Shown: positions 3,084 to 53,360 of the stretch, one piece after another
Numbering within the stretch: the stretch's first letter is position 1
Layout: each line of letters begins with the position of its first letter
Assembly (NCBI GenBank): GCA_963759005.1
Contig: CAVWXQ010000006.1
Span: forward strand, 17,020 to 81,019
DNA: 64,000 bases
Direction: 5' to 3'
DNA from: an uncultured Gammaproteobacteria bacterium
GTDB lineage: Bacteria > Pseudomonadota > Gammaproteobacteria > SZUA-229
The notes under the pieces: model-generated
The model's input: only the letters and a program-made list of their open reading frames with translations
Told to the model about the DNA's origin: nothing
The model's database searches: none
Program-made: the position numbers and the translations under genes

Positions 3084-3212
3084 CTGCGAATAAATAATTC
3101 AGCATAGCCACCGGCTTCACCCCTTTGAGGCTAAGGTGATAAATTGTTCCAGACAATTTATTCGCATCTACACGAAATTAAATAATTTACCAAAATCTAT
3201 AATTTACATTAA

Positions 3213-4559: not shown

Positions 4560-4865
4560 GTGAAAATCATTGCCTTTGTATTACTGGTTTTACTGATCTG
4601 GCTTCAATATAAAATCTGGTTGCAGGATGGGGGCATACCGGAAGTTATACAGTTACAACAGGAAATCGAAGTAGTAAAAACAGAAGTACAGAAATTACAG
4701 GAACGTAATTCGTCACTGGATGCTGAGGTGAAAGATCTTAAAAAAGGCCTGGATGCGATTGAGGAACGTGCGCGCAGCGAAATGGGCATGATAAAAGAAG
4801 GCGAAGTGTACTATCAGGTGATCGAGCCTGAGAAGAATAAGTCTTCCGCAAATACACGCGAATAA
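4560..4865 (+). CDS. ftsB: Cell division protein FtsB
   Basis: N-terminal TM helix LLIWLQYKIW plus coiled coil, conserved eno-ftsB-ispD-ispF order, and a GTG start. Confidence 0.8.
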   Translation: MKIIAFVLLVLLIWLQYKIWLQDGGIPEVIQLQQEIEVVKTEVQKLQERNSSLDAEVKDLKKGLDAIEERARSEMGMIKEGEVYYQVIEPEKNKSSANTRE

Positions 4866-4929
4866 GCGCAAATATGAATTTTAAAATCCACAGATGAACA
4901 CAGATTAATGAATTTTTTTGTTTTTAACA

Positions 4930-5060
4930 TCTGCGTTGACGTGCATGGAAGCACTTATGTCCAGGGACGGACAGTATTTCGCAAGGAGCCAGGAAGGTGG
5001 TGCGATAATGTCGTGGACGCATGGATGCGTAGGAGCGACCATCTGCGTTCATCTGTGGAT
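4930..5060. repeat. Small interspersed repeat, family R1 (GCATGGATGCG core), flanked by a 9-bp direct repeat atctgcgtt
   Basis: Related copies lie at 8318..8400, 10797..10898 (inside mtnP) and 38463..38650. The direct repeat occurs at 4930-4938 and 5041-5049. Confidence 0.6.
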
Positions 5061-5086
5061 AATTGTTTTAAGTCATTTGTGAGTAT

Positions 5087-5830
5087 TTGCGGAAAAATAT
5101 TATGAACCACGCAATATGGGCAATCGTGCCAGCTGCCGGTATTGGCAAACGTATGCAGTCTGATGTCCCCAAACAATATCTTTCGTTAAACGGACGACCT
5201 GTCCTTGAACACACAATAAATACCTTACTGAAAAACATAAATATTTCTGGTATGGTTATTGCCTTACAGCAGGATGATGTCTATTTTGCGGATATAAAAA
5301 TACATACGAATAAACCGGTATTACGTGCAGCAGGCGGCAAAGAACGTGCTGATTCTGTATTAAATGCCTTAGCAACATTATTTCAGCACAATCAATTTGA
5401 TAACAACAAAGATTGGGTAATGGTGCATGACGCGGTTCGTGCCTGTTTACAACAGCAGGATATCGATAGACTGGTAAGCGAAGTGGCTGAGGATAAAAAT
5501 GGTGGATTATTAGCTTTGCCGGTACGTGACACCATGAAAAAACAGAACATGGGCGAATCCATTGCCAGCGTTGCAAAAACCATAAAACGGGAAAACCTCT
5601 GGCATGCGCTGACACCGCAGTATTTTCACGCTGCAAGCCTGAAAAATGCGCTGGAAAAAGCCCGGTTAGATAATATGCCTATAACGGATGAGTCTTCTGC
5701 AATGGAATTTGCCGGTTTTTCTCCGAGACTGGTGCAGGGTTATGAGGATAATATTAAAATTACCCGGCCTGATGATTTACGCCTGGCCAGTTTGTTTCTC
5801 CAGTCACAGAACTGTGATTACGATAAGTAA
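5087..5830 (+). CDS. ispD: 2-C-methyl-D-erythritol 4-phosphate cytidylyltransferase
   Basis: AIVPAAGIGKRM N-terminal motif and its position upstream of ispF. Confidence 0.9.
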   Translation: MRKNIMNHAIWAIVPAAGIGKRMQSDVPKQYLSLNGRPVLEHTINTLLKNINISGMVIALQQDDVYFADIKIHTNKPVLRAAGGKERADSVLNALATLFQHNQFDNNKDWVMVHDAVRACLQQQDIDRLVSEVAEDKNGGLLALPVRDTMKKQNMGESIASVAKTIKRENLWHALTPQYFHAASLKNALEKARLDNMPITDESSAMEFAGFSPRLVQGYEDNIKITRPDDLRLASLFLQSQNCDYDK

Positions 5831-5887
5831 TGCACTGAAATCGTTCCCGACGATTTTCAGTATACACTCCATCCATGGAGATAAAGA
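5831..5887. repeat. Hairpin repeat, family R3, ending in GGAGATAAAGAATG and supplying the SD for ispF
   Basis: tgcactgaaatcgttcccgacgattttcagtatacactccatccatggagataaagaatg, with 3.6 tandem copies at 51121..51305 and a mosaic copy at 9489..9560. Confidence 0.65.
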
Positions 5888-5894
5888 ATGAGTA

Positions 5895-6413
5895 GTGGTG
5901 ATGAATAACAACAGCGACAGTCAATTACCACCATATAGAATTGGCCATGGTTATGATGTGCACCGTTTTGGCGAAGGCGATTTTATTGTTTTAGGCGGCC
6001 AGAAAATTCCACATGATCATGGTTTTATTGCGCACTCTGATGGTGATGTATTAATTCATTCGTTATGTGATGCATTATTAGGAAGCATTGCAGCGGGTGA
6101 TATCGGTCAACACTTTCCTGATACTGATGAACAATATAAAAATATTGATAGTAGTATTCTATTAGAAAAAATAAATCAGTTATTAAAACAGGATCAGTTT
6201 ATGATTGGTAATATTGACATAAGCATCGTTGCGCAAACACCGAAAATGTCACCGCATATACAATCAATGCGCCAGCATCTTGCCAATGTTTTAAACATCG
6301 CACAAACACAAATTAATATCAAAGCAACAACAACCGAAAAGTTAGGCTTTACCGGCAGGCAAGAAGGGATTGCTGTGCACAGTGTTGTAATGGTTTATAG
6401 TATTCCCACTTAA
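5895..6413 (+). CDS. ispF: 2-C-methyl-D-erythritol 2,4-cyclodiphosphate synthase
   Basis: IGHGYDVHRF and HSDGDV motifs. Confidence 0.9.
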   Translation: MVMNNNSDSQLPPYRIGHGYDVHRFGEGDFIVLGGQKIPHDHGFIAHSDGDVLIHSLCDALLGSIAAGDIGQHFPDTDEQYKNIDSSILLEKINQLLKQDQFMIGNIDISIVAQTPKMSPHIQSMRQHLANVLNIAQTQINIKATTTEKLGFTGRQEGIAVHSVVMVYSIPT

Positions 6414-6703
6414 TTGATTAAAAATGCATTTATTACTGTATTTGTAGTAAATTATGCATTTTTTTTTGCAAAAACTATTTACTTTGCTTGATTTAAGCTA
6501 TAAAACATCATCACGGTTTTATTCATTATTTCTTGTCTATAATGATTAGCGCAAATGATGTGTAAATCGGGATACATGTCAGGAAATATAGAAGACAGTA
6601 AGATGGATAAATCTTCACTGATACATAAAAAAAATAACTGGAACAAAGGAACCAGATAAAAATAATTTAAAATAAATATCAATCATCAAAGGGCGAAAAA
6701 ATA

Positions 6704-7129
6704 ATGGTACTAACAAAAAAGAAAGTGATTAAGAAGAAGACGACGACGAAAAAGAAAACGGTAAGTAGGGCTGTAACAAAAGCAGCAGCACCAGTAAAGA
6801 CAGTTAAAGCTATAACTAACGCTTATACCAAAACACAACTATACGCACATATCGCTGAAGACACCGAATTAGCACGTAAAGATATTGCTAAAGTTTTTGA
6901 CTCACTAGGTGATGTCATCCATGGTCATATTAAAAGTCGTGGCATAGGTGAATTTAAAGTACCTGGCTTATTGAAAATTAAAGTGACTAAAAAACCTGCA
7001 ACCAAAGCCAGAAAGAATGTACCAAATCCATTCCGTCCTGGCGAGTTCATGGACGTTGCTGCGAAACCAGCACGCAAGGTTGTTAAAGTTCTGCCATTGA
7101 AAGCACTTAAAGATATGGCTGCTAGCTAA
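6704..7129 (+). CDS. HU/IHF-family DNA-binding protein with a lysine-rich histone-H1-like N-terminal tail
   Basis: N-terminal KKKVIKKKTTTKKKT... tail followed by an HU fold (GEFKVPGLLKIKVTKKPATKARKNVPNPFRPGE..). Confidence 0.7.
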   Translation: MVLTKKKVIKKKTTTKKKTVSRAVTKAAAPVKTVKAITNAYTKTQLYAHIAEDTELARKDIAKVFDSLGDVIHGHIKSRGIGEFKVPGLLKIKVTKKPATKARKNVPNPFRPGEFMDVAAKPARKVVKVLPLKALKDMAAS

Positions 7130-7155
7130 GCTAGCACAAGCTTTGTATGACTTTT

Positions 7156-7193
7156 AAAAAGCCCTGTAAGACATGTTTTACAGGGCTTTTTTA
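7156..7193 (+). terminator. Rho-independent terminator
   Basis: gccctgtaa / ttacagggc stem followed by a T6 run. Confidence 0.7.
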
Positions 7194-7205
7194 TTGACAT
7201 AACCC

Positions 7206-7621
7206 GTCAAAGCTATATTGATGGGTTCGGACCACAGTGGTAGCCGAAGATTGACCAGTCAACATCCATGGCTGTGTTACCTTTCTTGTGAAAGAGCATG
7301 GCCAATCACTGCGAGATGTGGCTCGGCACACCGCTTCGCTGTTTCTCGACAACGGCCTCCTCGGCAACAGCTCCTGCGTTGCCCTAATAAGTTACATCCG
7401 TGTAACGATGCGTTGTCCTAATAAGTTATATTCGTGGACATATACATTGCACAGTACGACCACCATGGATGGTGGAAGTGCAGATATTACATATGTCCAC
7501 GGATGGACGGTAGTAGGGTAATGCAGGAGCAATTACCGAGGAGAAAATATCTGCCCGTCAATCCATGGACGTATTGCCAACTATGCTGACAGATCTACTA
7601 AACCATCAATATAGCTTTGAC
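7206..7621. mobile_element. MITE-like element, 416 bp, with perfect 19-bp terminal inverted repeats
   Basis: gtcaaagctatattgatgg at 7206-7224 and its reverse complement ccatcaatatagctttgac at 7603-7621. The interior carries R1 and R2 repeat modules and several CCATGG-centred palindromes. Confidence 0.65.
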
Positions 7622-7632
7622 AGAGTACTACC

Positions 7633-8223
7633 ATGACAACGCAAAAATTACTTTATTTACATGGCTTTAACAGTTCGCCGCAGTCACTCAAGGCGCAACT
7701 GATTAGTCAGTACATGTCTGACAAACATTGTCTGGATCAATTAATCTGTCCGCAAATTCCTTCAGTACCAGAACAAGCAAGGTTGTTTCTTGAACAACTG
7801 GTCGAAGAAACACTGGAAAATTACCCGCTGAGTTTTGCTGGTAGCTCACTGGGTGGTTATTATGCAACATATCTTGCCGAAAAATATTCCGGATATGCTG
7901 TGCTAATTAACCCATCTGTTAAACCTTATGAAACACTAAGAGCATACCTTGGTGAAAATAAATTTTATTTTGACGAAGGATGCTGGGAATTTGATGAGTC
8001 ACATATTCAGCAACTGGAAGTTATGAAGATTGAAGAAATCACCGAACCGGAACGCTATTTGGTTTTATTACAAACAGGTGACGAGACTCTGGATTATCAC
8101 GAAGCAGAATTAAAATATAAAGATAGCCAATGTATTATTGAGCAGGGCGGAGATCATTCGTTTGTTGGTTTCGAGCGCTATCTTCAGAAAATTTTGCAGT
8201 TTAGCCGAATACCATGTGGTTAA
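7633..8223 (+). CDS. YqiA-like esterase (alpha/beta hydrolase, UPF0227)
   Basis: LLYLHGFNSSPQSLKA N-terminus and a GSSLGG nucleophile elbow. Confidence 0.75.
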   Translation: MTTQKLLYLHGFNSSPQSLKAQLISQYMSDKHCLDQLICPQIPSVPEQARLFLEQLVEETLENYPLSFAGSSLGGYYATYLAEKYSGYAVLINPSVKPYETLRAYLGENKFYFDEGCWEFDESHIQQLEVMKIEEITEPERYLVLLQTGDETLDYHEAELKYKDSQCIIEQGGDHSFVGFERYLQKILQFSRIPCG

Positions 8224-8317
8224 ATATGATTAACAAAAAAAATATTTCACCATAGATGACACAGAGTTTTATTTGTGTGACTGCGCCTGCTGCGCAGTTA
8301 ACACATAAATCTTTTCT

Positions 8318-8400
8318 CTGTGCCCTCTGTGCGACGTGCATGGATGCACTAATGTCGCAGGTGTACGGATACACAAGAGCGACCTCTGTGGTGAGAAGCT
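8318..8400. repeat. R1-family repeat copy flanked by a ctctgtg direct repeat
   Basis: cgacgtgcatggatgcac...agagcgac with ctctgtg on both sides. Confidence 0.55.
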
Positions 8401-8436
8401 TTTAGTTTTTATAAGTAGATTTTATTAGGTGCTATT

Positions 8437-9483
8437 ATGACACTTGGCCCATTGATGGTTGATCTGGAAGGAATAGCCATTAGCGAAATAGAAAGAAACT
8501 TACTATTGAAATCTGAAGTTGGTGGTATTATTCTGTTCACCCGTAACTTCAAGTCAGTCGAACAATTAACCGCCCTGGTTGATGAAGTTCATCAACTGAG
8601 AACGCCGAAATTACTTGTTGCTGTTGATCACGAAGGCGGGCGCGTACAACGATTTCATGAAGGATTTAGTCGAATACCGGCAGCGGCAACATTTGCAAGA
8701 GTGGCAAAAAATGATTTGAAAAAAAGCCGGCAACTAGCTGAAGATGCGGGCTGGTTGATGGCAGTTGAACTGCGTGCCTGTGGCATAGATTTCAGTTTTG
8801 CGCCGGTGCTTGATCTGGCGCATGGATTAAGTGGTGTTATTGGTGACCGCGCGTTTCATAGCAAGCCGTCGACGGTTGCTACACTGGCGTATGCCTTTAT
8901 GCACGGCATGAACAGGGCTGGCATGCATGCGGTAGGTAAACATTTTCCCGGCCATGGCGGTGTTGTAGAAGATTCTCATGTGGCGATGCCGGTCGATCAT
9001 CGTGAACTTGATGAGTTATTACGTACTGATATTGTACCATTTGAAAACATGATAGAAAACAAGCTGGCAGGGATTATGCCCGCACATGTAATATACGATA
9101 AGGTAGATGACAAACCTGCTGGCTACTCATCTTTCTGGATTGAAAACATATTGCGCCAACGTTTTGGTTTCCAGGGGGTTATATTCAGTGATGATTTATC
9201 CATGGAAGCGGCTGGAATAGCCGGTGGTTTTGGCGAACGTGCGGATGCTGCCTTAAGAGCGGGGTGCGACATGGCACTAGTGTGCAATCATTTAGATGGT
9301 GCTATAGAAGCTGCAGAATATATCAAAGGTTATAACAATCCGACATCGCAGCTAAGACTGATTCGTATGCATGGAGAAAAGGATATTAGCTGGACTCAAT
9401 TAAGGCAGGATGAACATTGGCAGCATATATCTGCACGTATTGTGGCATTGAATGATTCACCGGAATTGGAAATGGACGTTTAA
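8437..9483 (+). CDS. nagZ: Beta-N-acetylhexosaminidase
   Basis: VDHEGGRVQRF and KHFPGHGG motifs; 348 aa. Confidence 0.9.
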   Translation: MTLGPLMVDLEGIAISEIERNLLLKSEVGGIILFTRNFKSVEQLTALVDEVHQLRTPKLLVAVDHEGGRVQRFHEGFSRIPAAATFARVAKNDLKKSRQLAEDAGWLMAVELRACGIDFSFAPVLDLAHGLSGVIGDRAFHSKPSTVATLAYAFMHGMNRAGMHAVGKHFPGHGGVVEDSHVAMPVDHRELDELLRTDIVPFENMIENKLAGIMPAHVIYDKVDDKPAGYSSFWIENILRQRFGFQGVIFSDDLSMEAAGIAGGFGERADAALRAGCDMALVCNHLDGAIEAAEYIKGYNNPTSQLRLIRMHGEKDISWTQLRQDEHWQHISARIVALNDSPELEMDV

Positions 9484-9488
9484 TAACA

Positions 9489-9560
9489 GTGCACTGGAAT
9501 CGTTCCTAGGCACACCGCTTCGCTGCTCCTCGCTAACTGCTCCATCCATGGAGATAAATA
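9489..9560. repeat. Mosaic repeat: R3 left half joined to the R2 module (gcacaccgcttcgctg), ending in ccatggagataaa
   Basis: Its halves match 5831..5887 and 7321..7345. Confidence 0.55.
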
Positions 9561-9627
9561 GTGAGAAACACTGCGAAATTATTTATTATTGCCATCCTGA
9601 ATAACTTCTTCAAGACATGAAAAAATT

Positions 9628-9999
9628 ATGAACAAGAAAAAGCTGTTAATTATTATGTCTAATGCAGATCCTTTAAAACCTGAAGGCTGTTATGCGCCAT
9701 TGTTTCAGGCAACAGTCGCTGCAGCTTTATCGCATGATGTAGAAGTTGTTTTTACCGGTATCTCCGCCCAACTGGCGATTGTGGGTAATGCGGAAAGCGT
9801 TGAAATTGATCTGGAGTCACACCGCACCATATATGACATCATTAAGGAGGCATATGGTGCTGGTGTTACTTTTAAAGTCTGTAATACTTCTCTAAAAATG
9901 GCAGGTGAAGGACTGATTACTGAGTTAGAGGAAAGAGTGGGTGCGGCTTATGTTATTGATGAGGCGATGGACGAGAATACGCTTACACTAACTTATTAA
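9628..9999 (+). CDS. DsrE/DsrF-family sulfur-relay-like protein
   Basis: 123 aa with a VCNTSLKMAGEG motif resembling the DsrE family. Confidence 0.55.
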   Translation: MNKKKLLIIMSNADPLKPEGCYAPLFQATVAAALSHDVEVVFTGISAQLAIVGNAESVEIDLESHRTIYDIIKEAYGAGVTFKVCNTSLKMAGEGLITELEERVGAAYVIDEAMDENTLTLTY

Positions 10000-10044
10000 A
10001 GTAAGCGCTGATTAACCATTTATTAAAATAGTAAGGATTTAACA

Positions 10045-10599
10045 TTGTCTGACTTAACATTACCCCCTGACTGTAATCTGATTTTTGACAATCAGGAAAT
10101 AAACGGTGCACTTGATAAGCTGGCGGATAAACTTAACCCGCAGTTAAAAAACGATAACCCTGTAGTATTGTGTGTGATGCAGGGCGGTTTATTATTTTCA
10201 GGTCACCTTATACCCAAATTAAATTGTATGTTGGAGATAGATTACATACACGTCACACGGTACAACAATGAAACCTCCGGTGGAGAGCTTTTATGGAAAG
10301 CGTATCCGGAGACGCCGCTTAAAGATAGAGCGGTGTTGATCCTGGATGACATCCTTGACGAAGGAAAAACACTTCAGGCTATTATTCAATATTGTGAAGA
10401 GCAGGGCGCGGCTAAAGTTGATGCTGCCGTTTTATTAAGAAAAAAACATGATCGCTGTATCGACCATCATCGTACTGATGAAGCACTAACCGATAATATT
10501 GCACTTACTGTTGAAGATAAATATGTTTTTGGTTTTGGTATGGACTATAACGGTTTGTATCGGCAGCTTGATTCAATTTATGCATTAGGCAAGCTCTGA
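10045..10599 (+). CDS. hpt: Hypoxanthine-guanine phosphoribosyltransferase
   Basis: PRTase PRPP motif VLILDDILDEGKT; 184 aa; TTG start. Confidence 0.8.
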   Translation: MSDLTLPPDCNLIFDNQEINGALDKLADKLNPQLKNDNPVVLCVMQGGLLFSGHLIPKLNCMLEIDYIHVTRYNNETSGGELLWKAYPETPLKDRAVLILDDILDEGKTLQAIIQYCEEQGAAKVDAAVLLRKKHDRCIDHHRTDEALTDNIALTVEDKYVFGFGMDYNGLYRQLDSIYALGKL

Positions 10600-10676
10600 T
10601 TTAGTGGTGAACTTACATCCTGTCAGCAAAATGTTTCGTCCAGTCTTAAGCAGACGTTCTCTGGAGGAGTGATAGT

Positions 10677-11537
10677 ATGAAACTGGCAATTATTGGCGGA
10701 AGCCTGTTTAACGAACCGGGTAATTTCATCAGGGTTACAGAAGAACAAATAAAAACACCCTTTGGTGAACCATCAGATATTTTCATTACTGGAACAATAA
10801 CCGCACCGCCGTCCTGGCTCCTTGCTGAATACCGTCCATCCATGGACATAACCGCACCGCCTTCCTGGCTCCTTGCTGAATACCGTCCATCCGTGGGCAT
10901 AAATGATGTTGAAGTGGTTTATTTAAACCGTCATGGTCATTCGCATCATTTAGCACCCCATCAAATTAACTACAGGGCCAACATGTTCGCCCTGAAAATA
11001 CTTGAAGTGACACATATTATTGCAGTCACGGCTGTTGGTGGCATAACTGAAAATATGCCACCGATGAAATGGGTGGTGCCCGATCAAATCATTGATTATA
11101 CCTATGGTCGTATGCAAACCTATAATGACGGCAATGAATCGGAAGTTAAACATATCGATTTTAGCTATCCATTTGATGATTTTTTACGAGATAAATTAAT
11201 TACAGCGCTGGATAAGAAGTCCTGTGCCTATGAAAAGCTGGCAACATACGGGGTAACACAGGGCCCTCGATTAGAATCCATCGCAGAAATTAAACGCATG
11301 CAGCGCGATGGCTGCGATATAGTTGGTATGACAGCCATGCCTGAAGCGGCATTAGCACGTGAACTGGAAATGAACTATGCCACACTCTCACTTGTTGTGA
11401 ACTGGGCCGCAGGTAAAGGGGGGAGTCCAGCACAGCAGGCTGAAGTCATTTCAATGGACGAAATAAAACAACGTATAGTGGATGGTAATGAAATAATTGA
11501 AAAGCTTATAAGCCACGTAGTTTCACTCCTTGGTTAG
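10677..11537 (+). CDS. mtnP: S-methyl-5'-thioadenosine phosphorylase carrying a 34-aa in-frame repeat insertion
   Basis: MtnP-like throughout (RHGHSHH, QINYRAN, GMTAMPEAALAREL). It is 286 aa against about 250 typical, and the excess is two tandem 51-bp R1 units at 10797..10898. Confidence 0.85.
   Translation: MKLAIIGGSLFNEPGNFIRVTEEQIKTPFGEPSDIFITGTITAPPSWLLAEYRPSMDITAPPSWLLAEYRPSVGINDVEVVYLNRHGHSHHLAPHQINYRANMFALKILEVTHIIAVTAVGGITENMPPMKWVVPDQIIDYTYGRMQTYNDGNESEVKHIDFSYPFDDFLRDKLITALDKKSCAYEKLATYGVTQGPRLESIAEIKRMQRDGCDIVGMTAMPEAALARELEMNYATLSLVVNWAAGKGGSPAQQAEVISMDEIKQRIVDGNEIIEKLISHVVSLLG
10797..10898. repeat. Two tandem 51-bp R1 units in frame within mtnP
   Basis: The units are near-identical. 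Their reverse complement matches the 4930..5060 copy (aaggagccaggaagg(t/c)ggtgcg). Confidence 0.75.
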
Positions 11538-11676
11538 CTGTAAATTTCGACTGTCTGTTAACACCCATTCCAGCCATTTTGACTGATATCGCTTTTCGCG
11601 ATATAAGGGGTCGGAGCCCTTTACATGTAAGCCATACAGCAGTAAAGTGTAAAAACCATGAAATAGGGGAAAACGG

Positions 11677-12375
11677 ATGCCAAGAAAACCACGATTTTAT
11701 CTACCCGGTGTGCCAGCACACATAGTGCAGCGCGGGCACAGCCGTGAACCCGTGTTTTTTGAAAGAGAAGATTACCAGGCCTATTTGGGTTGGTTGCAAG
11801 AAGCATCAGCGCGTTATAATTGTAAGGTACATGCTTATGTACTCATGACCAATCACATACATATACTTGCCACACCAGAAGATAAAAACAGCATTAGTTT
11901 AATGATGCAGTATATCGGGCGTCAGTACGTATCTTATATAAACCATACCTATGGTAGTAGTGGTTCGATATGGGAGGGTAGATATAAGTCGAATATCATC
12001 CATGATGAAACCTATTTATTGACCTGTATGCGTTATATTGAACTTAATCCGGTAAGAGCGGGTATGGTTAAATCACCTGGTGCATATCGCTGGTCCAGTT
12101 ATCAAGCGAATGCACAAGGGAAAGACAATGAAATAATAAATTTTCACCCTTTGTACAAATCATTAGGAAAAACCAAAGCACAACGCCTTGATGCTTATAA
12201 ATCATTGTTTAAGTTGCACATTGATGAAAAGCAACTAGATCTCATCCGCGCATCCTGGCAAACGGGGACGCCATTAGGTAATGACTATTTTAAACAGAAA
12301 GTTGAAGCGAAATTGAAATGCAAAGTGGGTCAAGCCAGACGTGGACGCCCTAAAAAGGGCTCTGACTCCATATAG
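11677..12375 (+). CDS. REP-associated tyrosine transposase (RAYT, IS200-like Y1 transposase)
   Basis: HIVQRGH ... MTNHIHIL (HuH motif) ... Y; 232 aa. A REP-like hairpin gatatcgcttttcgcgatat lies upstream at about 11597. Confidence 0.85.
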   Translation: MPRKPRFYLPGVPAHIVQRGHSREPVFFEREDYQAYLGWLQEASARYNCKVHAYVLMTNHIHILATPEDKNSISLMMQYIGRQYVSYINHTYGSSGSIWEGRYKSNIIHDETYLLTCMRYIELNPVRAGMVKSPGAYRWSSYQANAQGKDNEIINFHPLYKSLGKTKAQRLDAYKSLFKLHIDEKQLDLIRASWQTGTPLGNDYFKQKVEAKLKCKVGQARRGRPKKGSDSI

Positions 12376-12527
12376 CTGACCTCATATAGCTACCCCGTAT
12401 AGCTCATATAGCTGCTGATCCCATTACTGGTCGAGACTCCCAACAACGGACTGTCGTGCAGGTCAGATTGTTTAATTTTTAAATATGTTATGATTCGTGC
12501 ATCTGAAGATTATGTAAATATCTATAT

Positions 12528-19395: not shown

Positions 19396-19599
19396 ATTTA
19401 AAATCTGTGCTTCGACAACTGCTCCTGCATTATCGCCGCCAGCGATTGCACTAGCGTTGAAATAAAACAGCGTATGTCAGTAATAGTGTTCGAGATGACA
19501 GGTATGGTTTAGTAAAAGAAGTAGGCAGTGGAGAAAAAATGCTATCATGACCTTAATAAAGTTAAGCGGTTTTATATATCAAATTTGGATAGCATTTTT

Positions 19600-23082: not shown

Positions 23083-23424
23083 GTGGGTTTGATGTCAGAA
23101 ATAATTAATTTAGCAGAAAATATTATTAGCAGGGAAAACCGGGAGCAGTTAGCAAGTTTTGCTGGTCACACGATTGCTCACGGTCGAGCAACGCGGTGGC
23201 ACTGGGATAAAGCCGCCAATGGAGACGATTTTTTTGAGATATTCCGCGGTGGCGCAGACGAGGTGTTGGCGGTACGTATTAGCCGTGATCGAAAAATGGA
23301 TATCTTTAATGCGCATGATGTAACGGGTAAATTGATTGTGGCCGGTAAACTAGACCATGTTATGGCTGAGCTGGAACAGTATTTTATTCAACTGCATGGT
23401 GAGACACCTGATGCAACGGCTTAA
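23083..23424 (+). CDS. Hypothetical protein
   Basis: Open reading frame with an SD; no recognisable domain. Confidence 0.4.
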   Translation: MGLMSEIINLAENIISRENREQLASFAGHTIAHGRATRWHWDKAANGDDFFEIFRGGADEVLAVRISRDRKMDIFNAHDVTGKLIVAGKLDHVMAELEQYFIQLHGETPDATA

Positions 23425-23477
23425 TTAACACCGGTTAATTACCGAGGTTAATTACCAAAGTTAATTACCAAGCATAA

Positions 23478-23966
23478 TTACCAACGGGCATCTTCTATTA
23501 TGCCGCTTATTAAAGTAATGATTTCTTTGATGATAGCTTCAGATCCGGGTCGTCCAACGGGTACTCGATAAGAGACACGAACTATGCCCGGCTCGTTAGT
23601 AAGGCTATAGACGCTTATGGTAAATGGGCACAGGATAATATTATCCGGGTCCTGGCGTGCCAGCTTGTGGGAGATACTGGCGCTGCAAAACTCAAACGTT
23701 CTGGCGTTAGCGTAGGTATTGGTTTGATAGCCGTAAGCAGGTGCGGTGCGCTTTAACATCTCACTAGCAGGTAGCTCATGTGCAATACTTATGCCTTTGC
23801 CAATAATCGCAGTACGGATGTTATTGGCGATGTCATGATAATCCCCCTCAATTCTGCTGGTAACCACGGGGTCATTTGTCGCAACAGCAGCGAGGGAGGT
23901 TAATGATAATAGGGTAAAGAGCAATAGTTGTTTCCAAATTGATCTGGCAGTATTTAAATTTGACAT
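23478..23966 (-). CDS. Hypothetical secreted protein (DUF302-like)
   Basis: Signal peptide. Confidence 0.4.
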   Translation of the reverse strand: MSNLNTARSIWKQLLLFTLLSLTSLAAVATNDPVVTSRIEGDYHDIANNIRTAIIGKGISIAHELPASEMLKRTAPAYGYQTNTYANARTFEFCSASISHKLARQDPDNIILCPFTISVYSLTNEPGIVRVSYRVPVGRPGSEAIIKEIITLISGIIEDARW

Positions 23967-24625: not shown

Positions 24626-25287
24626 TTTCGATAGTATTTATTTATCATGTAGCCACCTTACTATTACCTCTTAAACTGGATTTACCATAACTTTTTATCT
24701 TTCTTGTACAAAAGCATTCAGCAGCCGATTTCATTAGATACATCAGTAATGTCAGTGCTTATCTCAAATCCAGTCGGCATAAATAATGCCTGTGACTGGC
24801 CAGATAAAACCAGAAGAAGGGTTGCAATAAAAAGTCTAATTAATTTCATAATCGGGCTCGTTTTTTTGTGGTTGTTAAGTATGGTTGTTAATTATGGATG
24901 TTAGTTATTAAAGAGCAAAAGCTGTGCCAGAAAAATAAGTTTATTCCCGACCGTTAGTTAAATGCGCTGGTGATACCTGGAAGCCATTTATAAGGGTATA
25001 TGGCTGATTTTGACTATTACTCATATTGGCCATTATTAAAACAACTGTTGAAACATAGACAAGTGGCGATTAAATAAACGTCAGATTTCGGTCAAAACTG
25101 CCATTAATATGACAGTAGCTAGCTATCGTAGCGACCTGTGAATGACTGTTCTGTATTGGTGACAGGCTACGCACTAAATGCAATCACAGGCAACGTCATG
25201 CCATGAACACTGATATGTTGTACAAATGGCCTGTTCAGGGTGCATGGCGTAACCTGCTGCATGGTTTTTATGTATAAGTTCATCAAA

Positions 25288-33937: not shown

Positions 33938-34116
33938 AGAGCCTTGCACGATGTGGATTTTTCGTCATGGCAAGGCAAGCATTGTCGAAAAAGCGCAGTT
34001 TACAAGTAGTAAATGAGCATTTTGAGACTATTTTTAACGCCGCCATGGCGGAAAAGATGCTTCGTGTAAAGTTCTCTAGTAGAAAAAAGTTAATTTAATC
34101 GATTTAATTTAAAGAT

Positions 34117-34146: not shown

Positions 34147-34887
34147 TTTTTTATTTTTCCAATAAGATAAAAGCAAGAGCGATGCGCTATCGTAGGATGA
34201 ACCATTTCCACCTGGCTAAATGTACGAGTAGTTGACACCAGGTACGCACGGGGCGCTCTGCTATTCATCAAATAGTTACATGATGGATCTGGGCAGGCGT
34301 TGGCGCAGATTAATATTTAGCTCAATCATTCTGTCACAAACATCAGTTTTAAATGATTTCGAAATATTGGAACCATGTAACCTTTTCATGGTGAGCTAAT
34401 GAGTATGTTTACTATGTACAGAGTGCATCGTTTAATGTTGGCAGAACTATTCATTTATATATCTATAATTAATTCAGTCTGCCATTGAGTCTGCCATCAG
34501 CGACAGGTTTAACATGTCATGTGCGACAGGAAATGATACCTGAAATGACAGTTATATTAGAATATTATTATCCGGTTTTAATCTGGTCGTATGGCATGTA
34601 TTTTAATTATTTTTTTACAGTGTAAATAAAATCGACGGTTTTTGTCTGGCAATGGCGCGTTTACGTTAAGTAAACCTATGTCTCTTGTTAAAAAAATCGA
34701 CGGTTTTAAGTTAGAAACTAGAAGAGATATACTCTTTATTGTCATGATTTAAATAAATATAAATTGTTTTTATTTGTCCTTATTAAGGCTATTTGTTACG
34801 CTGAATTAATATGTTGTCAGAAAATTGACATTCGTCACTTTTCGGTGCTATATTTCCCGTCAATTAAGTAATGATGTTACTTAACTT

Positions 34888-35320
34888 ACCTAAATGTCAG
34901 TCGGGGTTCTTCTGGCTGTAAAAGAAATTCAAGGATTTTTAACATGGACATGGATCTATTTATCATGGATTTTTTTATCATAAATATAATTTGAGGAATT
35001 GTTTTCCTCTTATTTAATAGTACCTAAATGTCAGTCGGGGTTCTTCTGGCTGTAAAAGAAATTCAAGGATTTTTAACGTGGACATGGACATATTTAACAT
35101 GGACATGGATCTATTTATCATGGATTTTTTTATCATAAATATAATTTGAGGAATTGTTTTCCTCTTATTTAATAGTACCTAAATGTCAGTCGGGGTTCTT
35201 CTGGCTGTAAAAGAAATTCAAGGATTTTTAACATGGACATGGATATATTTAACATGGACATGGATTTATTTATCACGGATTTATAATAAACATAATTTTG
35301 AGGAATTGTTTTCCTCTATG
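34888..35320. repeat. Three tandem copies of a 134- to 155-bp AT-rich repeat inside a 1.4-kb non-coding leader
   Basis: Units start at 34888, 35022 and 35177. Each contains sub-repeats aacatggacatggat and a gaggaattgttttcctc hairpin. The second unit has a 24-bp internal duplication. Confidence 0.85.
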
Positions 35321-35399
35321 AGTATGGTTATGGCAAAAAGTTTGTGATGTTAATAAATTTTTATAAATTAACTAAAAACAATATTAATGAGGATGTGAG

Positions 35400-38300
35400 A
35401 ATGTTTATAAACACTCTGAAACAATTTCTCCGAAAAGCGACTTTTCTAACTGCTGCTGGTGCAATTATTTTTGCAACAGCAATGGTTACTTCTGTTGATG
35501 CAAGGGCCGGAGATATAGATATAGACCGCGCAAGCTGGAGCAACGACCGTGATCGACTGACAGTGCGTGGTGACAATGCACGAGATAACGATACCGTTAC
35601 TATCAGGTATGGTAAAAAAGAAGATAATGGTGTCGTGATTGGCACTACTCAGGCGGACGGTGATGGTGATTGGGAGTTTCGTATCTCTGCTATCGATCCA
35701 GTGCCGTGTGATGTAACCGCAGTAGACAGTCGCGACGACGATGATAAGGAAGTACGACGTGCACCAAGAGACTGTAGCAACGACGGTGGAGCACCACCAG
35801 CTGCGCAGTGTAACGATGGTATTGATAATGATGGCGATGGACTGACAGATTTTCCAGCTGATCCCGGATGTACGGATGTCAACGACAACGATGAGTTCAA
35901 TGCACCGCCACAACAAGATGCACAGTGTAACGATGGCCTCGATAACGATGGCGATGGCCTGACCGATTTTCCGGCTGATCCCGGATGTACGGATGTCAAC
36001 GACAACGATGAATTCAATGCACCGCCACAACAAGATGTGCAGTGTAACGATGGCATCGATAACGATAACGATGGTCTGACCGATTTTCCGGCTGATCCCG
36101 GATGTGTGGATGCTAACGACAATGATGAAATTGATCCTGTCGCGGTGAACTGTACGCCGCTTACCGGTAAATCCATTAACTCTACCAGCCAGACAGGTTG
36201 TGCAGAACAGGATGTACCCGAGGTTGCCACACTGCTAAATGGCAATTTCCGTGTATTAGCCATCAACGACCTGGGTATGCACTGTGGTGATTACGATACC
36301 CGTATCTCCAGTATCCTGCCACCATTCCAGGTACTGCTAGGCCAGGTGATCCAGCGCGGCGCTACGCCAACGTTGAACCCGGAGGGAGTGAGCCTGTCGT
36401 ACTCTGCGACTTCTAACTCGCAAGATCCTGTCCTGAATCGGATCGGAGCTATACGCGGCCTGAATGACGATGGTACCACTTACAAGACTAACTTCTGGGA
36501 TGCGGTTGCAGGCGGTGCTTATGATCCGTTCTACCCGGCCATTGTTACACCGTTGCTTAATGGACCGTTCCCGGTCATCGCGGACATCGGCCTGCCGGTA
36601 CCCAATGTGGAAGAGCTCTACATCGGTGCAGACGGTGTGGTCAACAGCGGCGACGAGACTCTCAGCGCAGTGCAGCACACCATGCCAGGGCTGAACAACC
36701 CATACTGTCCTCAACGATCCAAAGACGGTCAACGAGCACTATGGCGACAAGCCCTTCTTCGTTAACTTCCCGTTCGGTTATGTAGCTGAGAATGTGAACT
36801 GGTACGAAGGTGCAGGCGTTCCGTTAGCCGCTTATGATGATTTCGGTTATGAGAACTCCTACCCACTGGTTCGCGTTGAAGCCAAGCAGGGCAACACCAC
36901 TGTTGCCACGATTGATACCGTGCTGCCAATCTCCGGTGAGGCAAGCTGCATCAACTGTCACTCCGATCCAGCCGACGTGCAGACCAGCCGTACCAGTCAA
37001 CCAACTGATACGCTGGTTACTGCCGGACTGCCGGTGGCAGTAAGTCTGGATGATCCGGACCAGAACCTGCCTATTGACGTCAGCACCGAATATGCAGCGG
37101 ACATCAACATCCTGCGTTTGCACGATCTGAAACATGGTGCGAACTATGTGGACACCGCTGGTAGCATCAACACCGTGTGACGTTACTGCCAATGCGGGCA
37201 ACGGCGATGCCAACTGCCTGATTAACAAGGCGCTGGTGCAGGGCGAACCGGCGGTCTGTCAGACGTGTCACTACACCCCGGCGCTTGATCTTGCGCAGGT
37301 TGGTCCTGTAGCCGGTGCTGTTGGTACCGATGCCAATGGACGTAACCAGGTGGCGCATTCAAGTAACTCCAACGTAATGCACAGCCACCACGGTGGTCTT
37401 GGTAACCTGTTCCCGCCAATGCCGGCACCGATTCAGAACGGCTGATGGTACTATCACCAACCAGACCGATCGTCTGGCGGTGTTAGAAGATACCTGTTAC
37501 CAGTGTCACCCGGGCACCACCTCGCAGTGTCTGCGTGGCGCGATGTTCAACGGTGGCATGCTGTGTAACGACTGCCATGGCAGCATGGAGCAGGTCGGTG
37601 CTGACTTCTCCGCTGGTGTCTCTCCACAGAACCCGGGTGCGTTTGTGCTGGGCGGCAACTTCTATGACCCTAACGACCCGCAACCGCGTGTGCCATGGGC
37701 CAACGAGCCGGGTTGTGGTTCATGCCATACCGGTGACGTCCGCGACAACATGGCGGGTACAGCCAATACTATAGCCAATACACGTGATGTAGACGGCAAC
37801 GTCGACAATCTGCGTCTGCGCGTGGCGTACGTAGCGGATCCGAATGACCCGACGGTCAATCCGAAGGCCGCGCCTATCGTACCTACCAACAAGCGCTTTG
37901 CTGAGCCAGCCGTTCCGGCTACGTTTACTAACGCTGACGGCAGTACGTTTGCCAACCCGGGTGCGGGTAATCCGCAGCTGTACCGGGTGAGTACCGGTCA
38001 CGGTGGTGTCATGTGTGAAGGCTGTCATGGTGCAACCCATGCGGAATGGCCAAATGCCAATCCGGCATCCAACGACAATGTCACGGCAGATCAGTTCCAG
38101 GGTCACACCGGCCCTATTATCGAGTGCGGCGAGTGTCATACCGACATCAACGCTCTGGGTACTAACGGTTCTACCAACAGCCTGCAGGGACCACACGGCA
38201 TGCATGTAGTGGGTAACACAAGCTTCGCTGACGGTGGCCATCAATCAAACCTCAATCGCAATGCCTGTCGCGACTGTCATGGTCAGAACGGTGAAGGTTC

Positions 38301-38471: not shown

Positions 38472-38650
38472 ATGTACAGGATGTACGGTATGCCGCGGGC
38501 GCATGGATGCGCAGGAGCGGTGAATGTACAGGATGTACGGTATGCCGCGGGCGCATGGATGCGCAGGAGCGGTGAATGTCAGGATGTACGGTATGCCGCG
38601 GGCGCATGGATGCGCAGGAGCGGTGAATGTCAGGATGTACGGTATGTCTA
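38463..38650. repeat. Roughly 3.3 tandem copies of a 57-bp R1-family unit
   Basis: caggatgtacggtatgccgcgggcgcatggatgcgcaggagcggtgaatgt(a) repeated. Confidence 0.85.
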
Positions 38651-38865
38651 AAAGAGCCATGGATGGAGGTGAGACGAATGCCAATTTATGGGAGGTATAC
38701 TCTTGCCTAAGAGTCAGAACGGCTTAAAGACAGTAATAAACGAGTGTATAGAGATATCTGGGATGCTCAATGCATTATTTTCTTTCATAAACCTAAAAAA
38801 ATCAGTTAACCCTACCGAGTTGATAAAACAGGCATAAATTCTGCTTTTTTGTCTCCCGCCTAGTT

Positions 38866-40416: not shown

Positions 40417-40957
40417 TAATTTTCTCTCTGGAGTCAGGTAGTTATAGCTTTATACTCTCTTTTAACTGATTTTTTAAGGATAAAGATATAAAAGAGCGAC
40501 TGAATGCCGCTTTTTTTGTATACCCTGTGACTAAAGAGGGGGGGCTTTTAGTCCCTTTTCTAGTCCAGCAACTTTAAGCCAGTGGTGGTTAAGTTTTTTT
40601 TAAGGTTTGGCAGTATTTTTTTCATTATAATCTTGCGTAGTATATGAAAACGATATTTTTCGCTTAGCATGCTTGGTGATCAGAAGTGCATAGGGGCATC
40701 GGGATGGATGTTTCTATGCGTTTTTTTACTTACATATAAACAGTATATTACCTGTCTGGTCCGAAAATCCTTCAGAGAAAACGCCTGACTCAACCCTGCT
40801 TTCTGCATTTGACATCCATGGATGAAGGCAATGCAGCTGGATTATAGGGACAATCCTTGCCATGCAGTCGTGTGCTTAAAAGTCAGCAAAACTCTATGGT
40901 GATTAATTAGAGTGACCTTGATCAGTTTTCATTGCATCTAATCTAATCTAATCTGGT

Positions 40958-51023: not shown

Positions 51024-51120
51024 TGCCAGCGGTAATGAATGGTGGATACCAACAAGGCTATTTGTCATCTCGATCAGCAGGATTGTTACATGGATGTAGG
51101 AAGTGCAGAAAATGCAGGAG

Positions 51121-51305
51121 CAATTTTCAGTCACTACATCCCTGGAGATGCACTGAAATTGTTCCAGACAATTTTTAGTATACACTCCATCCCTGGAGAT
51201 GCACTGAAATTGTTCCAGACAATTTTTAGTATACACTCCATCCCTGGAGATGCACTGAAATTGTTCCAGACAATTTTCAGTATACACTCCATCCCTGGAG
51301 ATAAA
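51121..51305. repeat. 3.6 tandem copies of a 51-bp R3 unit, ending in CCCTGGAGATAAAAAATG and supplying the SD for moeA
   Basis: ccctggagatgcactgaaattgttccagacaatttttagtatacactccat repeated three times. The ORFs in the track that translate the repeat are artefacts. Confidence 0.85.
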
Positions 51306-51307
51306 AA

Positions 51308-52579
51308 ATGCGAGATATAGAAATAAAAACAGTTGATTGTTGTGCTTCGCCCGGATTGATATCGGTTGAGCAGGCGCTTGAGAAGGTTCTTGCTCAGGCT
51401 TCGCCTGTCGAGCAAGTTGAGCAGGTAAATATTCTACATGCATTAAACAGGGTGCTTGCTGAGGACTTACATTCAACCATAGATGTACCGGGTTATGATA
51501 ACAGCGCGATGGACGGTTATGCTGTACGCAGTGAAGATTGTCAGACTTCTGGTTCTGACTTACCCGTGTCACAACGCATAGCTGCCGGTCAGGTTGGTAC
51601 ATTCCTTGAACCAGGCACTGCTGCACGTATTTTTACCGGGGCACCTGTACCTGAAGGTGCTGATGCAATTGTTATGCAGGAAATGTGTGAACAACATGAT
51701 GAAGCTCAGCTAGAAAAGAATCAGGGTGGCCGGGTAATTATTAATACGGTTGTTAAAGCAGGCGCTAATATTAGAAGTGCCGGTGAAGATATAGCCAGGG
51801 GGAATACCGTACTAAAAGCAGGCAAACGGTTACGTCCACAGGAGCTTGGTTTACTGGCATCTGTTGGTCTCGCTGAAATCAAGGTAAAAAGAAAATTAAA
51901 AGTTGCCACGTTTTTTACTGGTGATGAAATTATAACGCCGGGACAGGCATTAGCTGACGGACAAATTTATAATTCTAATCGCTATACACTAACCGGTTTA
52001 TTACAGGCAATGGACTGTGAGATTGTCGATTTAGGCATAGTGCCTGATACCCTGGAGGCAACGTTAGAAGTGTTGGAACAGGCTGCTTCAGGTGCTGACC
52101 TGGTGATTACCAGTGGCGGGGTTTCTGTTGGTGAAGAAGATTATGTTCGAATCGCTCTGCAGAAACTTGGCGAGTTAACAATGTGGCGTATTGCAATGAA
52201 ACCGGGAAAACCGGTAGCATTTGGTAAGGTTAAAAATGCGCTGTTTATGGGGCTGCCAGGCAACCCTGTTTCTGTCTTTGTAACTTTTTTGCTATTTGCA
52301 CGCGCCTTGATTTTGAAGCTGCAGGGCGCAGAAGATTGTCTTGTTAAACGTGTTTCTGTCATTGCTGATTTTGACTGGCCAGAAATAAAACGCCAGGAAT
52401 ATTTACGTGTTCGCCTTGTGGAAAAAGATAAGCAGACGGTTGCCCAACTATTTCCTCACCAGGGTTCTGGCGTATTAAGCTCTGCAAGTTGGGCCGATGG
52501 GCTAATAGAGGTATTTATCGGTCAGCAAATCAAACAGGGAGACAAAGTAAGTTACCTGCCATTTGAAGGTTTGTATTAA
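51308..52579 (+). CDS. moeA: Molybdopterin molybdenumtransferase
   Basis: DVPGYDNSAMDGYAVR and GGVSVGEEDY motifs. Confidence 0.9.
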   Translation: MRDIEIKTVDCCASPGLISVEQALEKVLAQASPVEQVEQVNILHALNRVLAEDLHSTIDVPGYDNSAMDGYAVRSEDCQTSGSDLPVSQRIAAGQVGTFLEPGTAARIFTGAPVPEGADAIVMQEMCEQHDEAQLEKNQGGRVIINTVVKAGANIRSAGEDIARGNTVLKAGKRLRPQELGLLASVGLAEIKVKRKLKVATFFTGDEIITPGQALADGQIYNSNRYTLTGLLQAMDCEIVDLGIVPDTLEATLEVLEQAASGADLVITSGGVSVGEEDYVRIALQKLGELTMWRIAMKPGKPVAFGKVKNALFMGLPGNPVSVFVTFLLFARALILKLQGAEDCLVKRVSVIADFDWPEIKRQEYLRVRLVEKDKQTVAQLFPHQGSGVLSSASWADGLIEVFIGQQIKQGDKVSYLPFEGLY

Positions 52580-53261: not shown

Positions 53262-53360
53262 AAAATCACTGTCCCGCTAACAAAAAGAAATTATTTAAAC
53301 AGCCTGATGTAGCAAGCTTTGATAAGGGTTGCGTTAATCCGAGACATGAACCAGACGCAG
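53262..53360. repeat. R4 repeat copy, paired with 140..245
   Basis: See the 140..245 entry. Confidence 0.6.

Follow-up and report, generated by a model that had tools for sequence, protein, structure and literature searches.

Repetitive extragenic palindromes (REPs), together with the bacterial interspersed mosaic elements (BIMEs) and REPINs, are short imperfect palindromes that reside mostly between genes, and more commonly between convergent than between divergent ones. The palindromic elements of Rickettsia (RPEs) measure about 100–150 bp and are restricted to this genus. How such repeats move and why they are kept in genes are largely unresolved questions, to which we add a family of two-hairpin repeats found in a contig of an uncultured gammaproteobacterium (CAVWXQ010000006.1). 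The 64,000-nt stretch that was analysed is referred to as the window, and numbered loci (such as L001 or L003) are stretches from other genomes or metagenomes. A sequence-only reading of this DNA had noticed three families of interspersed repeats, termed R1, R2 and R3, all of which we recovered at or near the places where they had been seen. As judged from sequence comparison, our analysis confirms that R1, R2 and R3, their hybrids, a repeat in the gene of an MTAP/MTIP phosphorylase (MTAP-type) and the modules of a larger composite resembling a transposable element of the miniature inverted-repeat type (MITE) constitute one superfamily of non-coding, non-autonomous DNA repeats. Its unit comprises 48–57 nt that form two hairpins with conserved TCC-containing tetraloops and covarying stems. 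We regard this description, including the modes by which the units multiply, as well founded, whereas the full proposal, which adds a trans-acting enzyme operating on single-stranded DNA, appears to us probable with some reservation.

The sequence-only reading had likened these repeats to REP/BIME, Correia or BOX systems, of which the first comparison is apt in kind, with respect to their interspersed, mosaic and module-sharing character, and the latter two are poor analogies. Like REPs and BIMEs, the units are short palindromes found in many, mostly extragenic copies, which for canonical units and R1 alike are more frequent between convergent than between divergent genes. They also share the mosaic modules, the tandem arrays and the occasional intragenic copies. 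A possible counterpart of the GTAG-type head of REPs is seen in the canonical unit, which has CTACTAC 3' of hairpin A (GTAGTAG in the complement), a motif that was itself part of the search pattern, and the R1, R3 and MTAP-type units of the window contain GGTAT or TGTATAC instead. In contrast to REPs, the repeating entity is a fixed pair of hairpins with conserved tetraloops, whose stems differ widely whereas copies of a REP are near-identical within a genome, and it is conserved across orders whereas REPs are species-specific. The units are arranged head-to-tail or nested, unlike BIMEs, where the orientation alternates and linker motifs intervene, and they are not accompanied by a cognate REP-associated tyrosine transposase (RAYT) flanked by inverted copies. 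Membership of the REP/BIME class in a strict sense thus fails on the RAYT flanks and on the alternating orientation. Correia/NEMIS, BOX and ERIC elements resemble the units in being small, interspersed between genes and open to co-transcription with their neighbours, but the units contain neither their sequences nor their hallmarks, which are 26-bp inverted ends and a TA duplication in Correia elements, the boxA/B/C modules of streptococci in BOX and a 127-bp enterobacterial palindrome in ERIC. To our knowledge, tandem arrays and self-nesting are not features of RPEs. The resemblance to RPEs, as described in PMC3733652, lies in their palindromic nature, their location in frame within functional genes besides intergenic regions and the presence of several stop-free frames, whereas the gammaproteobacterial units are set apart from them by description and not by sequence.

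The design of the family is illustrated by its canonical unit, which on the 'TCCA' strand reads CGGYAAY-TGCTCCTGC-RTTRCC (hairpin A), CTACTACC, NNNCA-TCCA-TGNNN (hairpin B) and ATAT. Hairpin A is effectively a GC-closed TCCT tetraloop. Loops and linker are conserved, and the stems vary freely yet remain complementary. This is reflected in an alignment of 104 distinct units, all of them from other genomes, where 94.9% of the cells are paired, compared to 77.7% in shuffles and 31–37% in slid controls, and where 228 cells carry double changes compared to 87. In stem A, whose positions were left free by the search pattern, 5.66 of 6 positions are paired, and in the outer part of stem B, on which the pattern imposed nothing, pairing at 3.60 of 4 positions (1.74 with shuffled partners) is maintained although more than 25 sequences of this stem occur. 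The 14-nt hairpin B, or its complement with a TGGA loop, is present in all families, with the stems acgca/tgcgt, ctcca/tggag, gtcca/tggac, gtgca/tgcac, gcgca/tgcgc and ccacca/tggtgg, and it occurs 13 times in the window compared to 2.4 ± 1.5 times in shuffles. As seen when the context is aligned, a second hairpin located upstream carries the loop TGCTCCTGC, which in R3 is TTCCAGA, and the following linker is CTACTACC, GTATACA or ATACC. R3, R4, MTAP-type and R1 represent sub-families that differ in stems and linkers. When folded as single-stranded DNA, six of eight units form two hairpins with z-scores between -2.3 and -4.1, whereas the MTAP-type unit and the hybrid, with z-scores of -1.0 and -1.7, respectively, fold no better than shuffles. 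A presumed rule that the length of a unit is always a multiple of three was discarded in view of periods of 34, 48, 51, 52 and 57 nt, the reading frame being of relevance in genic copies only.

A covariance model built from the 104 foreign units recovers the repeats of the window, with E-values of 9e-20 and 7e-16 for two units within the composite, 8e-8 for R4, 3e-4 for a fragment at 19410, 7.5e-4 and 5e-3 for R3, 5.5e-3 for the MTAP-type unit and 9e-3 for the hybrid, and it also detects units in the relatives L001, L003 and L007. In total, the search placed more than 15 units in 64 kb (Table 1). The mosaic make-up that had been noticed before is borne out by the hybrid at 9489–9558, which joins the left half of R3 to R2, and by the R2 module in the composite at 7206–7621. 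The family also extends beyond the previously considered range of 4930–10898, with larger arrays at 38472–38680 and 51080–51302. Two further features had been overlooked, namely that the repeat at 10797–10898 is in frame within a gene, and that a complete 51-nt unit is nested in the R1 composite at 4938–5039, the latter of which is 84% complementary to 10797–10905. We assign R1 to the family because it shares the two-hairpin plan and the GCAGGAGC motif and because canonical units are nested exactly at GCAGGAGC.

Units multiply either as head-to-tail tandem arrays, the periods of which are 48, 51 or 57 nt, or by nesting, where a whole unit is inserted into the hairpin-A loop of another one at GCTCC^TGC, or beside or inside hairpin B. 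They have also inserted in genes, behind terminators and into loops that belong to unrelated host palindromes. Relative to the orthologous block of L001, the composite at 7206–7621 differs by three indels (33, 47 and 12 nt), the second of which amounts to an entire unit that has compensating stems and a hairpin B of its own. On the TCCA strand, this unit interrupts the resident one at GCTCC^TGC, within the loop of hairpin A. The same junction accounts for multilayer structures in many genomes, including the apparent three-way junctions of the Methylobacter type, where it connects an R4-type host to a canonical unit. The R4 unit of the window at 51080–51132 is the uninterrupted form of this host, and R4-type units are also nested in the MTAP gene of L001 and in L089. 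The flanks of canonical units are mutually complementary (-12.4 kcal/mol compared to -9.7 kcal/mol in controls with mismatched partners, P = 2.6e-9), and units therefore often sit in the loops of diverse host hairpins.

A comparison of orthologous loci, as suggested in the sequence-only reading, found units present or absent at the same sites in the syntenic relatives L001, L003, L005 and L007, with empty sites among them. The R3 unit of the ispD-ispF spacer is missing from L003 and L005, where this spacer is 4–5 nt long, and both R1 copies (4938–5039 and 8332–8382) are missing from L007, which provides a clean empty site for the second of them with an indel of 59 nt. The nagZ-DsrE spacer, which in the window holds the hybrid, contains different elements in L003, L005 and L007, that of L007 being in opposite orientation. 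As a separate observation, the right inverted end of the composite (CCATCAATATAGCTTTGAC, 7600–7632) is kept upstream of UPF0227 in L003 and L007, where the composite is largely or entirely missing. This end is either native sequence or part of an old composite that was eroded in these relatives.

Short direct repeats at two R1 copies had been taken to suggest insertion with target duplication. These repeats exist, since the R1 composite is bounded by two CATCTGCGTT decamers (4928–4937 and 5040–5049) belonging to a host palindrome, and R1 at 8332–8382 is bracketed by CCTCTGTG (8324–8331 and 8383–8390), but a duplication is not supported as a property of the element. Among 76 distinct solitary R1 copies, 58 show 0–4 nt of flanking identity, as do controls. 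All 18 copies with abutting direct repeats of at least 5 nt fall within host palindromes marked by ctctgtg or catttgcg, the arms of which consist of decamers or octamers in tandem. With direct repeats absent at most copies, the claim of duplication fails. Nested insertions show an ambiguity of 0–1 nt at their junction, and neither nested nor genic insertions have led to a duplication. The empty ftsB-ispD site of L007 already has tandem CATCTGCGTT, and the case is therefore uninformative, whereas at the UPF0227-nagZ site the filled form contains one CCTCTGTG more than the empty one, which makes R1 8332–8382 compatible with an 8-bp target duplication in this single case. Insertion thus leaves no general target duplication. 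Terminal inverted repeats as found in MITEs are absent from the units, and inverted ends, which contain AGCTATAT, are found only on the composite at 7206–7621. The host palindromes (4888–4937 with 5040–5058, CCACAGATGAAC.../...CATCTGCGTTCATCTGTGG; 8253–8331 with 8383–8391, CCACAGAGGACACAGAG.../...CTCTGTGNCCTCTGTGG) constitute a REPIN-like family of their own, which is found again in relatives and metagenomes and where R1 is often located.

The mode of insertion invites comparison with two other systems. The small dispersed repeats (SDRs) of heterocyst-forming cyanobacteria, reportedly described by Elhai and colleagues in Genome Research in 2008, are said to be 21–27 nt long. They resemble the units in their very small size, in lacking target duplication and a linked transposase, and in nesting within repeats or MITEs and sometimes within genes. 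In contrast, the pair of hairpins with conserved loops and covarying stems and the nesting at GCTCC^TGC distinguish the units from SDRs, which belong to another phylum and were compared by description only. In elements of the IS608 type, the cleavage or target site recurs beside the hairpin, with which the nesting junction of the units is consistent. Palindrome-associated transposable elements (PATEs), which derive from IS200/IS605 and move by a Y1 'peel and paste' mechanism, share with the units the presence of hairpins and the absence of inverted terminal repeats and duplication. Unlike PATEs, the units have no linked TnpA, no single target tetranucleotide that would apply to all junctions and no orientation bias relative to genes, the last being a weak proxy for the direction of replication. 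Of the features of Y1 HUH elements, the units show the absence of duplication and, for nested canonical units, a recurrent GCTCC^TGC site, whereas other junctions differ.

The insertion of units in genes is illustrated in the MTAP protein of the window, which contains 34 extra residues in form of two 17-residue units (ITAPPSWLLAEYRPSMD and ITAPPSWLLAEYRPSVG) encoded in frame by 10797–10898. Close homologs of this protein comprise 252, 269, 286 and 303 residues, corresponding to 252+17n, and an alignment of relatives shows zero, one, two or three units at one site. In L001 a different 51-nt unit of the R4 type was inserted in opposite orientation 1 nt 5' of the resident hairpin, and the genes of L003 and L007 keep remnants of 21–24 nt. 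Of the R1 matches listed, 31 of 128 are located in frames that stay free of stops for 40 codons or more on either side, and Pfam confirms in-frame R1 copies in five families, which include the IS91-family Y2_Tnp, the HsdM methylase, an SF1 helicase (AAA_12), an HTH_3 regulator and an HlyD-type protein. The element can be read without a stop in several frames, and genic copies occur in both orientations, although only in-frame, stop-free ones survive. Within Y2_Tnp, units are found at a first site in L126, L147, L168, L199, L212, L225, L227 and L239, at a second in L210 and L215, at a third in L204 and L212 and at a fourth in L063 and L086. One of these sites falls inside the HUH motif (NIH-[17 aa]-HML), which is uninterrupted (HYH) in L178. 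By inspection of the sequences, the codons flanking the Y2_Tnp insertions differ mostly synonymously, and the inserted R1 copies are nearly identical.

The modules are not unique to the window. A scan of one genome per species with the pattern TGCTCCTGC-N6-CTACTA-N4-6-CATCC, in which loops and linker are fixed, identified the canonical unit in at least 113 genome stretches, where by our own estimate about 3 would be expected by chance. The matches span many gammaproteobacterial orders, including Methylococcales, and were found in Methylobacter, Methyloglobulus, Methylocucumis, Methylotuvimicrobium, Thiotrichaceae, Thiothrix, Methylophaga, Sedimenticola, Kangiella, Pseudoalteromonas, Endobugula, Cellvibrio, Arenicella, Granulosicoccus and many further Gammaproteobacteria. 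About 88% of canonical copies are located outside long open reading frames. A scan of metagenomes with the 24-nt 5' end of R1 identified at least 120 stretches, with near-identical 24-mers in soil and in marine samples. The 51-nt consensus of R1 is (T)GACGTGCATGGAYGCACTAATGTCGCGGGCGCAGGATGCGCAGGAGCGAC, and its second hairpin has a covarying stem. R1 recurs within two families of host palindromes, flanked there by their tandem repeats, in the loops of other hairpins, in coding sequence and directly after the T-runs of terminators, there often as arrays as found at position 38472 of the window. No Rfam family matches the units, since the window and 18 unit-bearing loci gave only rRNA, tRNA and 6S at the gathering score, and a search of 4800–11000 at E ≤ 10 gave no relevant match, Csr/Rsm small RNAs and TwoAYGGAY included. 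A limited search of Rfam and the searchable literature by sequence strings and topic did not retrieve a description of these units. The family is thus apparently undescribed so far, although we do not claim a new category of element. The MITE and RepeatModeler consensus sequences of Thiomargarita turned out to be unrelated.

What moves the units is less evident than their design. The sequence-only reading had viewed R1–R3 as families of the MITE or REP type whose insertion would duplicate the target site, with the RAYT encoded at 11677–12375 as the candidate enzyme for their mobilisation. This protein is a genuine REP-associated tyrosine transposase (Pfam Y1_Tnp, 4.8e-14; NCBIfam REP_Tyr_transpos, 82 bits at a cut-off of 80) with homologs of 70–95% identity across Gammaproteobacteria. 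The proposal would also accommodate the apparent 8-bp duplication of R1 8332–8382 relative to its empty site and the GTAGTAG that, read on the complementary strand, is located 5' of hairpin A in canonical units and is akin to GTAG-tagged REPs (PMC3733652). In the one suggestive case, L036, a distant RAYT-like gene is succeeded first by a hairpin that has a GTAG head and a GGA/TCC loop, and next by a canonical unit. A role of the RAYT as mobiliser of the units nevertheless found no support. The gene has its own inverted repeat (around 11604–11626 and 12352–12372, GGGGTCGGAGCCC / GGGCTCTGACTCC), and in four of four loci it is bracketed by a conserved inverted repeat (GGGGTCRGAGCCC, with the copies ATAAGGGGTCRGAGCCCTTTACA and AAAAAGGGCTCTGACCCC) that is unrelated to the units. 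The covariance model detected no unit, and hence no inverted pair, within 3 kb of the window RAYT and three homologs. The gene is also missing from all four syntenic loci, which still carry repeats, and tblastn places a homolog near only 2 of the about 113 unit loci listed. Considering also the lack of flanking repeats at most solitary R1 copies, the location of the others in host tandem repeats and the nested and genic insertions without duplication, the proposal is most unlikely, and the adjacent RAYT cannot be demonstrated to be the enzyme that moves the units. A link to rolling-circle transposons of the IS91 family (Y2 HUH), which would either mobilise the units or offer single-stranded intermediates for preferential integration and hitch-hiking, might be seen in the Y2_Tnp genes found at 13 of 120 R1 loci and 2 of 113 canonical loci among those listed, where the unit is always inside the gene. 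The four different in-frame sites, the near-identity of inserts within synonymously diverged codons and the lack of target duplication, which fits HUH chemistry, point in the same direction. We still consider this link very unlikely, as the window contains no Y2_Tnp gene and most unit loci have none nearby, an insertion within the HUH motif should inactivate the enzyme, and the enrichment could stem from a single or a few transposon copies that were hit and then amplified.

Alternatively, the repeats might have no dedicated mobility and expand and become reshuffled solely by replication slippage, by template switching at hairpins and by gene conversion among existing copies, which would be in line with arrays that differ in copy number among relatives, with mosaic junctions located at hairpins, with the internal deletions indicated by the MTAP remnants in L003 and L007 and with the lack of both target duplication and a linked transposase. 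Such processes cannot, however, place a complete unit with different compensating stems into the loop of another one, seed units at unrelated sites in the genes of MTAP, HsdM, a helicase and an HTH protein or account for near-identical R1 24-mers in soil and marine metagenomes, and we thus regard this explanation as quite unlikely. A different possibility is that the units act as RNA, as modules that would bind CsrA/Rsm proteins, in which case arrays such as the one at 38472–38680, with three GGA per 51 nt, might serve as CsrB/RsmZ-like sponges and dispersed copies might subject genes to regulation by CsrA. Read on one strand, every unit displays two to three GGA motifs in loops, as found in sponge small RNAs. 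The complement of hairpin B is CA-N-GGA-UG, whose loop holds the GGA, and that of hairpin A is GCAGGAGC. In a striking resemblance, the hairpins exactly match the CsrA/Rsm consensus CANGGANG and RUACARGGAUGU (with gtaCAGGATGtac and gcgCATGGATGcgc as examples in the window), motifs that are quoted from Schubert 2007 and Dubey 2005 in PMC6849547. Conserved loops on covarying stems are typical of protein-bound RNA hairpins, the distribution is gammaproteobacterial, and in the window and several other loci arrays directly follow terminators in GGA orientation. In contrast, the orientation relative to co-directional neighbours is unbiased (19 sense and 24 antisense for canonical units; 17 and 10 for R1) and copies inside coding sequences occur both ways. 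The units do not appear to form a discrete strand-specific transcription unit, and both properties favour an element acting at the level of DNA over a sense RNA. The absence of a match to Csr/Rsm RNAs in Rfam and of a promoter/terminator pair delimiting the arrays, although promoters themselves were not examined, adds to our view that this function is very improbable. G-T wobbles in stem A, which favour folding of the TCCA over the GGA strand, concern a single position and are not decisive.

The units are probably REP/BIME- and RPE-like non-autonomous DNA that is moved in form of single-stranded hairpins by an enzyme acting in trans. In the mechanism that we propose, an enzyme of the HUH/tyrosine-transposase type would recognise the hairpins as folded single-stranded DNA and would cut and paste units without duplication, although the assignment to this enzyme class is tentative and open to doubt. 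Several observations weigh against the proposal. The canonical model does not significantly match R1 as a whole, whose hairpins alone reach an E-value of about 0.5, and neither a transposase nor a nuclease could be linked to the units, with the sole tyrosine transposase of the window having flanks unrelated to them. There is no common target sequence that covers every junction, and the nested insertions beside hairpin B, at 4956–5006 and in the MTAP gene of L001, break the GCTCC^TGC rule. Widely shared composites could spread as ready-made blocks, and therefore not every nested arrangement corresponds to an independent insertion. R1 does not favour sites on the 3' side of hairpins, since an insertion just 3' of hairpins or terminators, of which anecdotal cases exist, is not reflected in the upstream folding (-5.13 compared to -5.22 kcal/mol in controls, P = 0.88). 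Finally, both collection scans provide lower bounds and hence no copy number per genome. A broader version of the proposed mechanism, in which a widely conserved HUH-type enzyme would excise units of about 50 nt and reinsert them without duplication in the TCC-containing loops of other units and in further transiently single-stranded DNA, is unlikely. If it were true, nesting and the hits in IS91-type genes would follow from self-targeting, transposons would ferry units, and CsrA-binding hairpins would become scattered through transcriptomes.

With its fixed unit, a defined self-nesting junction, filled and empty sites in close relatives and in-frame copies in several protein families, the family offers an unusually clean handle on the movement of such repeats and on their persistence in genes, to which its presence in the culturable and genetically tractable methanotrophs Methylotuvimicrobium buryatense 5G and Methylobacter tundripaludum SV96 adds another. 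Units break assemblies, create spurious open reading frames and add inserts of 16–19 residues to annotated proteins, and a model of the unit would improve the annotation of gammaproteobacterial genomes and metagenome-assembled genomes.

The setting of the units is summarised in Table 1, where the genes of the region, housekeeping genes and the Y1 transposase, are all encoded on the forward strand.

Table 1. Genes and repeat units in the window (positions in nt).
Feature	Position	Strand	Remarks
Isolated copy of first R3 hairpin (aaattgttccagacaattt)	3141-3159	+	Conserved at the same place in L001
ftsB	4560-4865	+	
R1 composite, 102 nt	4938-5039	-	R1 parts 4938-4955 and 5007-5039, nested unit between
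Nested complete MTAP-type unit, 51 nt	4956-5006		1 nt 3' of hairpin gtgcaTGGAagcac within R1
ispD	5087-5830	+	
Single R3 unit	5832-5882	+	ispD-ispF spacer; hairpin ctgaaatcg/cgattttcag, tataca, hairpin ctccaTCCAtggag, at; covariance model E = 0.0048
ispF	5895-6413	+	
HU-like gene	6704-7129	+	
MITE-like composite block	7206-7621	no strand	Inverted ends of about 20 nt (GTCAAAGCTATATTGATGG)
R2 motif (GGCACACCGCTTCGCTG)	7325-7341		Inside composite
Canonical unit	7359-7411	+	Inside composite; covariance model
Extra TCCA/TGGA hairpins	7391-7406, 7460-7475		Inside composite
Canonical unit	7489-7541	-	Inside composite; covariance model
UPF0227	7633-8223	+	
Single R1 unit, 51 nt	8332-8382	-	Within right arm of second host palindrome
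nagZ	8437-9483	+	
Hybrid unit	9489-9558	+	R3 left half (gcactggaatcgttcc), R2, hairpin ctccaTCCAtggag, ataaa; covariance model E = 0.0088
R2 motif (GGCACACCGCTTCGCTG)	9509-9525		Inside hybrid
DsrE-like gene	9628-9999	+	
hpt	10045-10599	+	
MTAP/MTIP phosphorylase gene	10677-11537	+	
Two tandem MTAP-type units, 51 nt each	10797-10898	+	In frame in MTAP/MTIP phosphorylase gene
Y1 transposase (RAYT) gene	11677-12375	+	Y1_Tnp; NCBIfam REP_Tyr_transpos
Degenerate canonical fragment	19410-19448	+	Hairpin A with loop TGCTCCTGC kept, hairpin B gone; E = 2.6e-4
R1-type tandem array, about 4 units	38472-38680	-	Period 51-52 nt; begins directly after intrinsic-terminator-like hairpin and T-run
Further family module (gacatccatggatgaaggcaatgcagctggattatagggacaatccttgccatg)	40805-40880	no strand	Common to L024 and L044; weak model match
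R4-type unit	51080-51132	-	Stem gaaaat/attttc, loop TGCTCCTGC, linker tgcacttcc, hairpin tacaTCCAtgta; covariance model E = 8e-8
R3 tandem array, 3.4 units	51132-51302	+	Period 51 nt

The R3 array stops 7 nt short of the ATG (51308) of a moeA-like open reading frame (51308–52579), and for this reason the GGAG upstream of this frame is derived from the last R3 hairpin arm. The R3 copies at 5867–5892 and 9540–9565 share the ending GGAGATAAA with 51297–51310 and are followed by short open reading frames.

Other repeats were encountered in the same DNA. Right after the RAYT stop (12362–12412), four tandem CATATAGCT-like repeats of 13–14 nt are located in an extra segment of about 80 nt, which is missing from the 95% identical RAYT locus L123. 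An 84-nt repeat (CTGTCCCGCTAACAAAAAGAAATT...) occurs twice in the window with 85% identity (151–234 and 53269–53352), and in L123 it recurs in reverse orientation at a site just upstream of the RAYT. The DsrE-hpt spacer, empty in the window, is filled in L007 (5442–5589) by a MITE-like repeat of some 135 nt (AGAGCCTTGCACGATGTGGATTTTTCG...GCGGAAAAGATGCTTC) that the window carries at 33938–34070. An open reading frame at 35344–36765 contains a 117-nt in-frame tandem repeat of 2.8 copies (35792–36142) and is preceded by 2.5 copies of a AACATGGACATGGA-rich 155-nt tandem repeat (34801–35320). Intergenic 13-nt tandem repeats are located at 23421–23484 and 24869–24908 (TTAATTACCAAGG, TGGTTGTTAATTA). 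In the more distant relative L005, tandem repeats of the heptamers TAAGTTA, AAAACTT and GTGAAAA (2665–2991, 4626–5024 and 8801–9044) flank another palindrome (GTTCCCACGC...GCGTGGGAAC) at the same intergenic positions.

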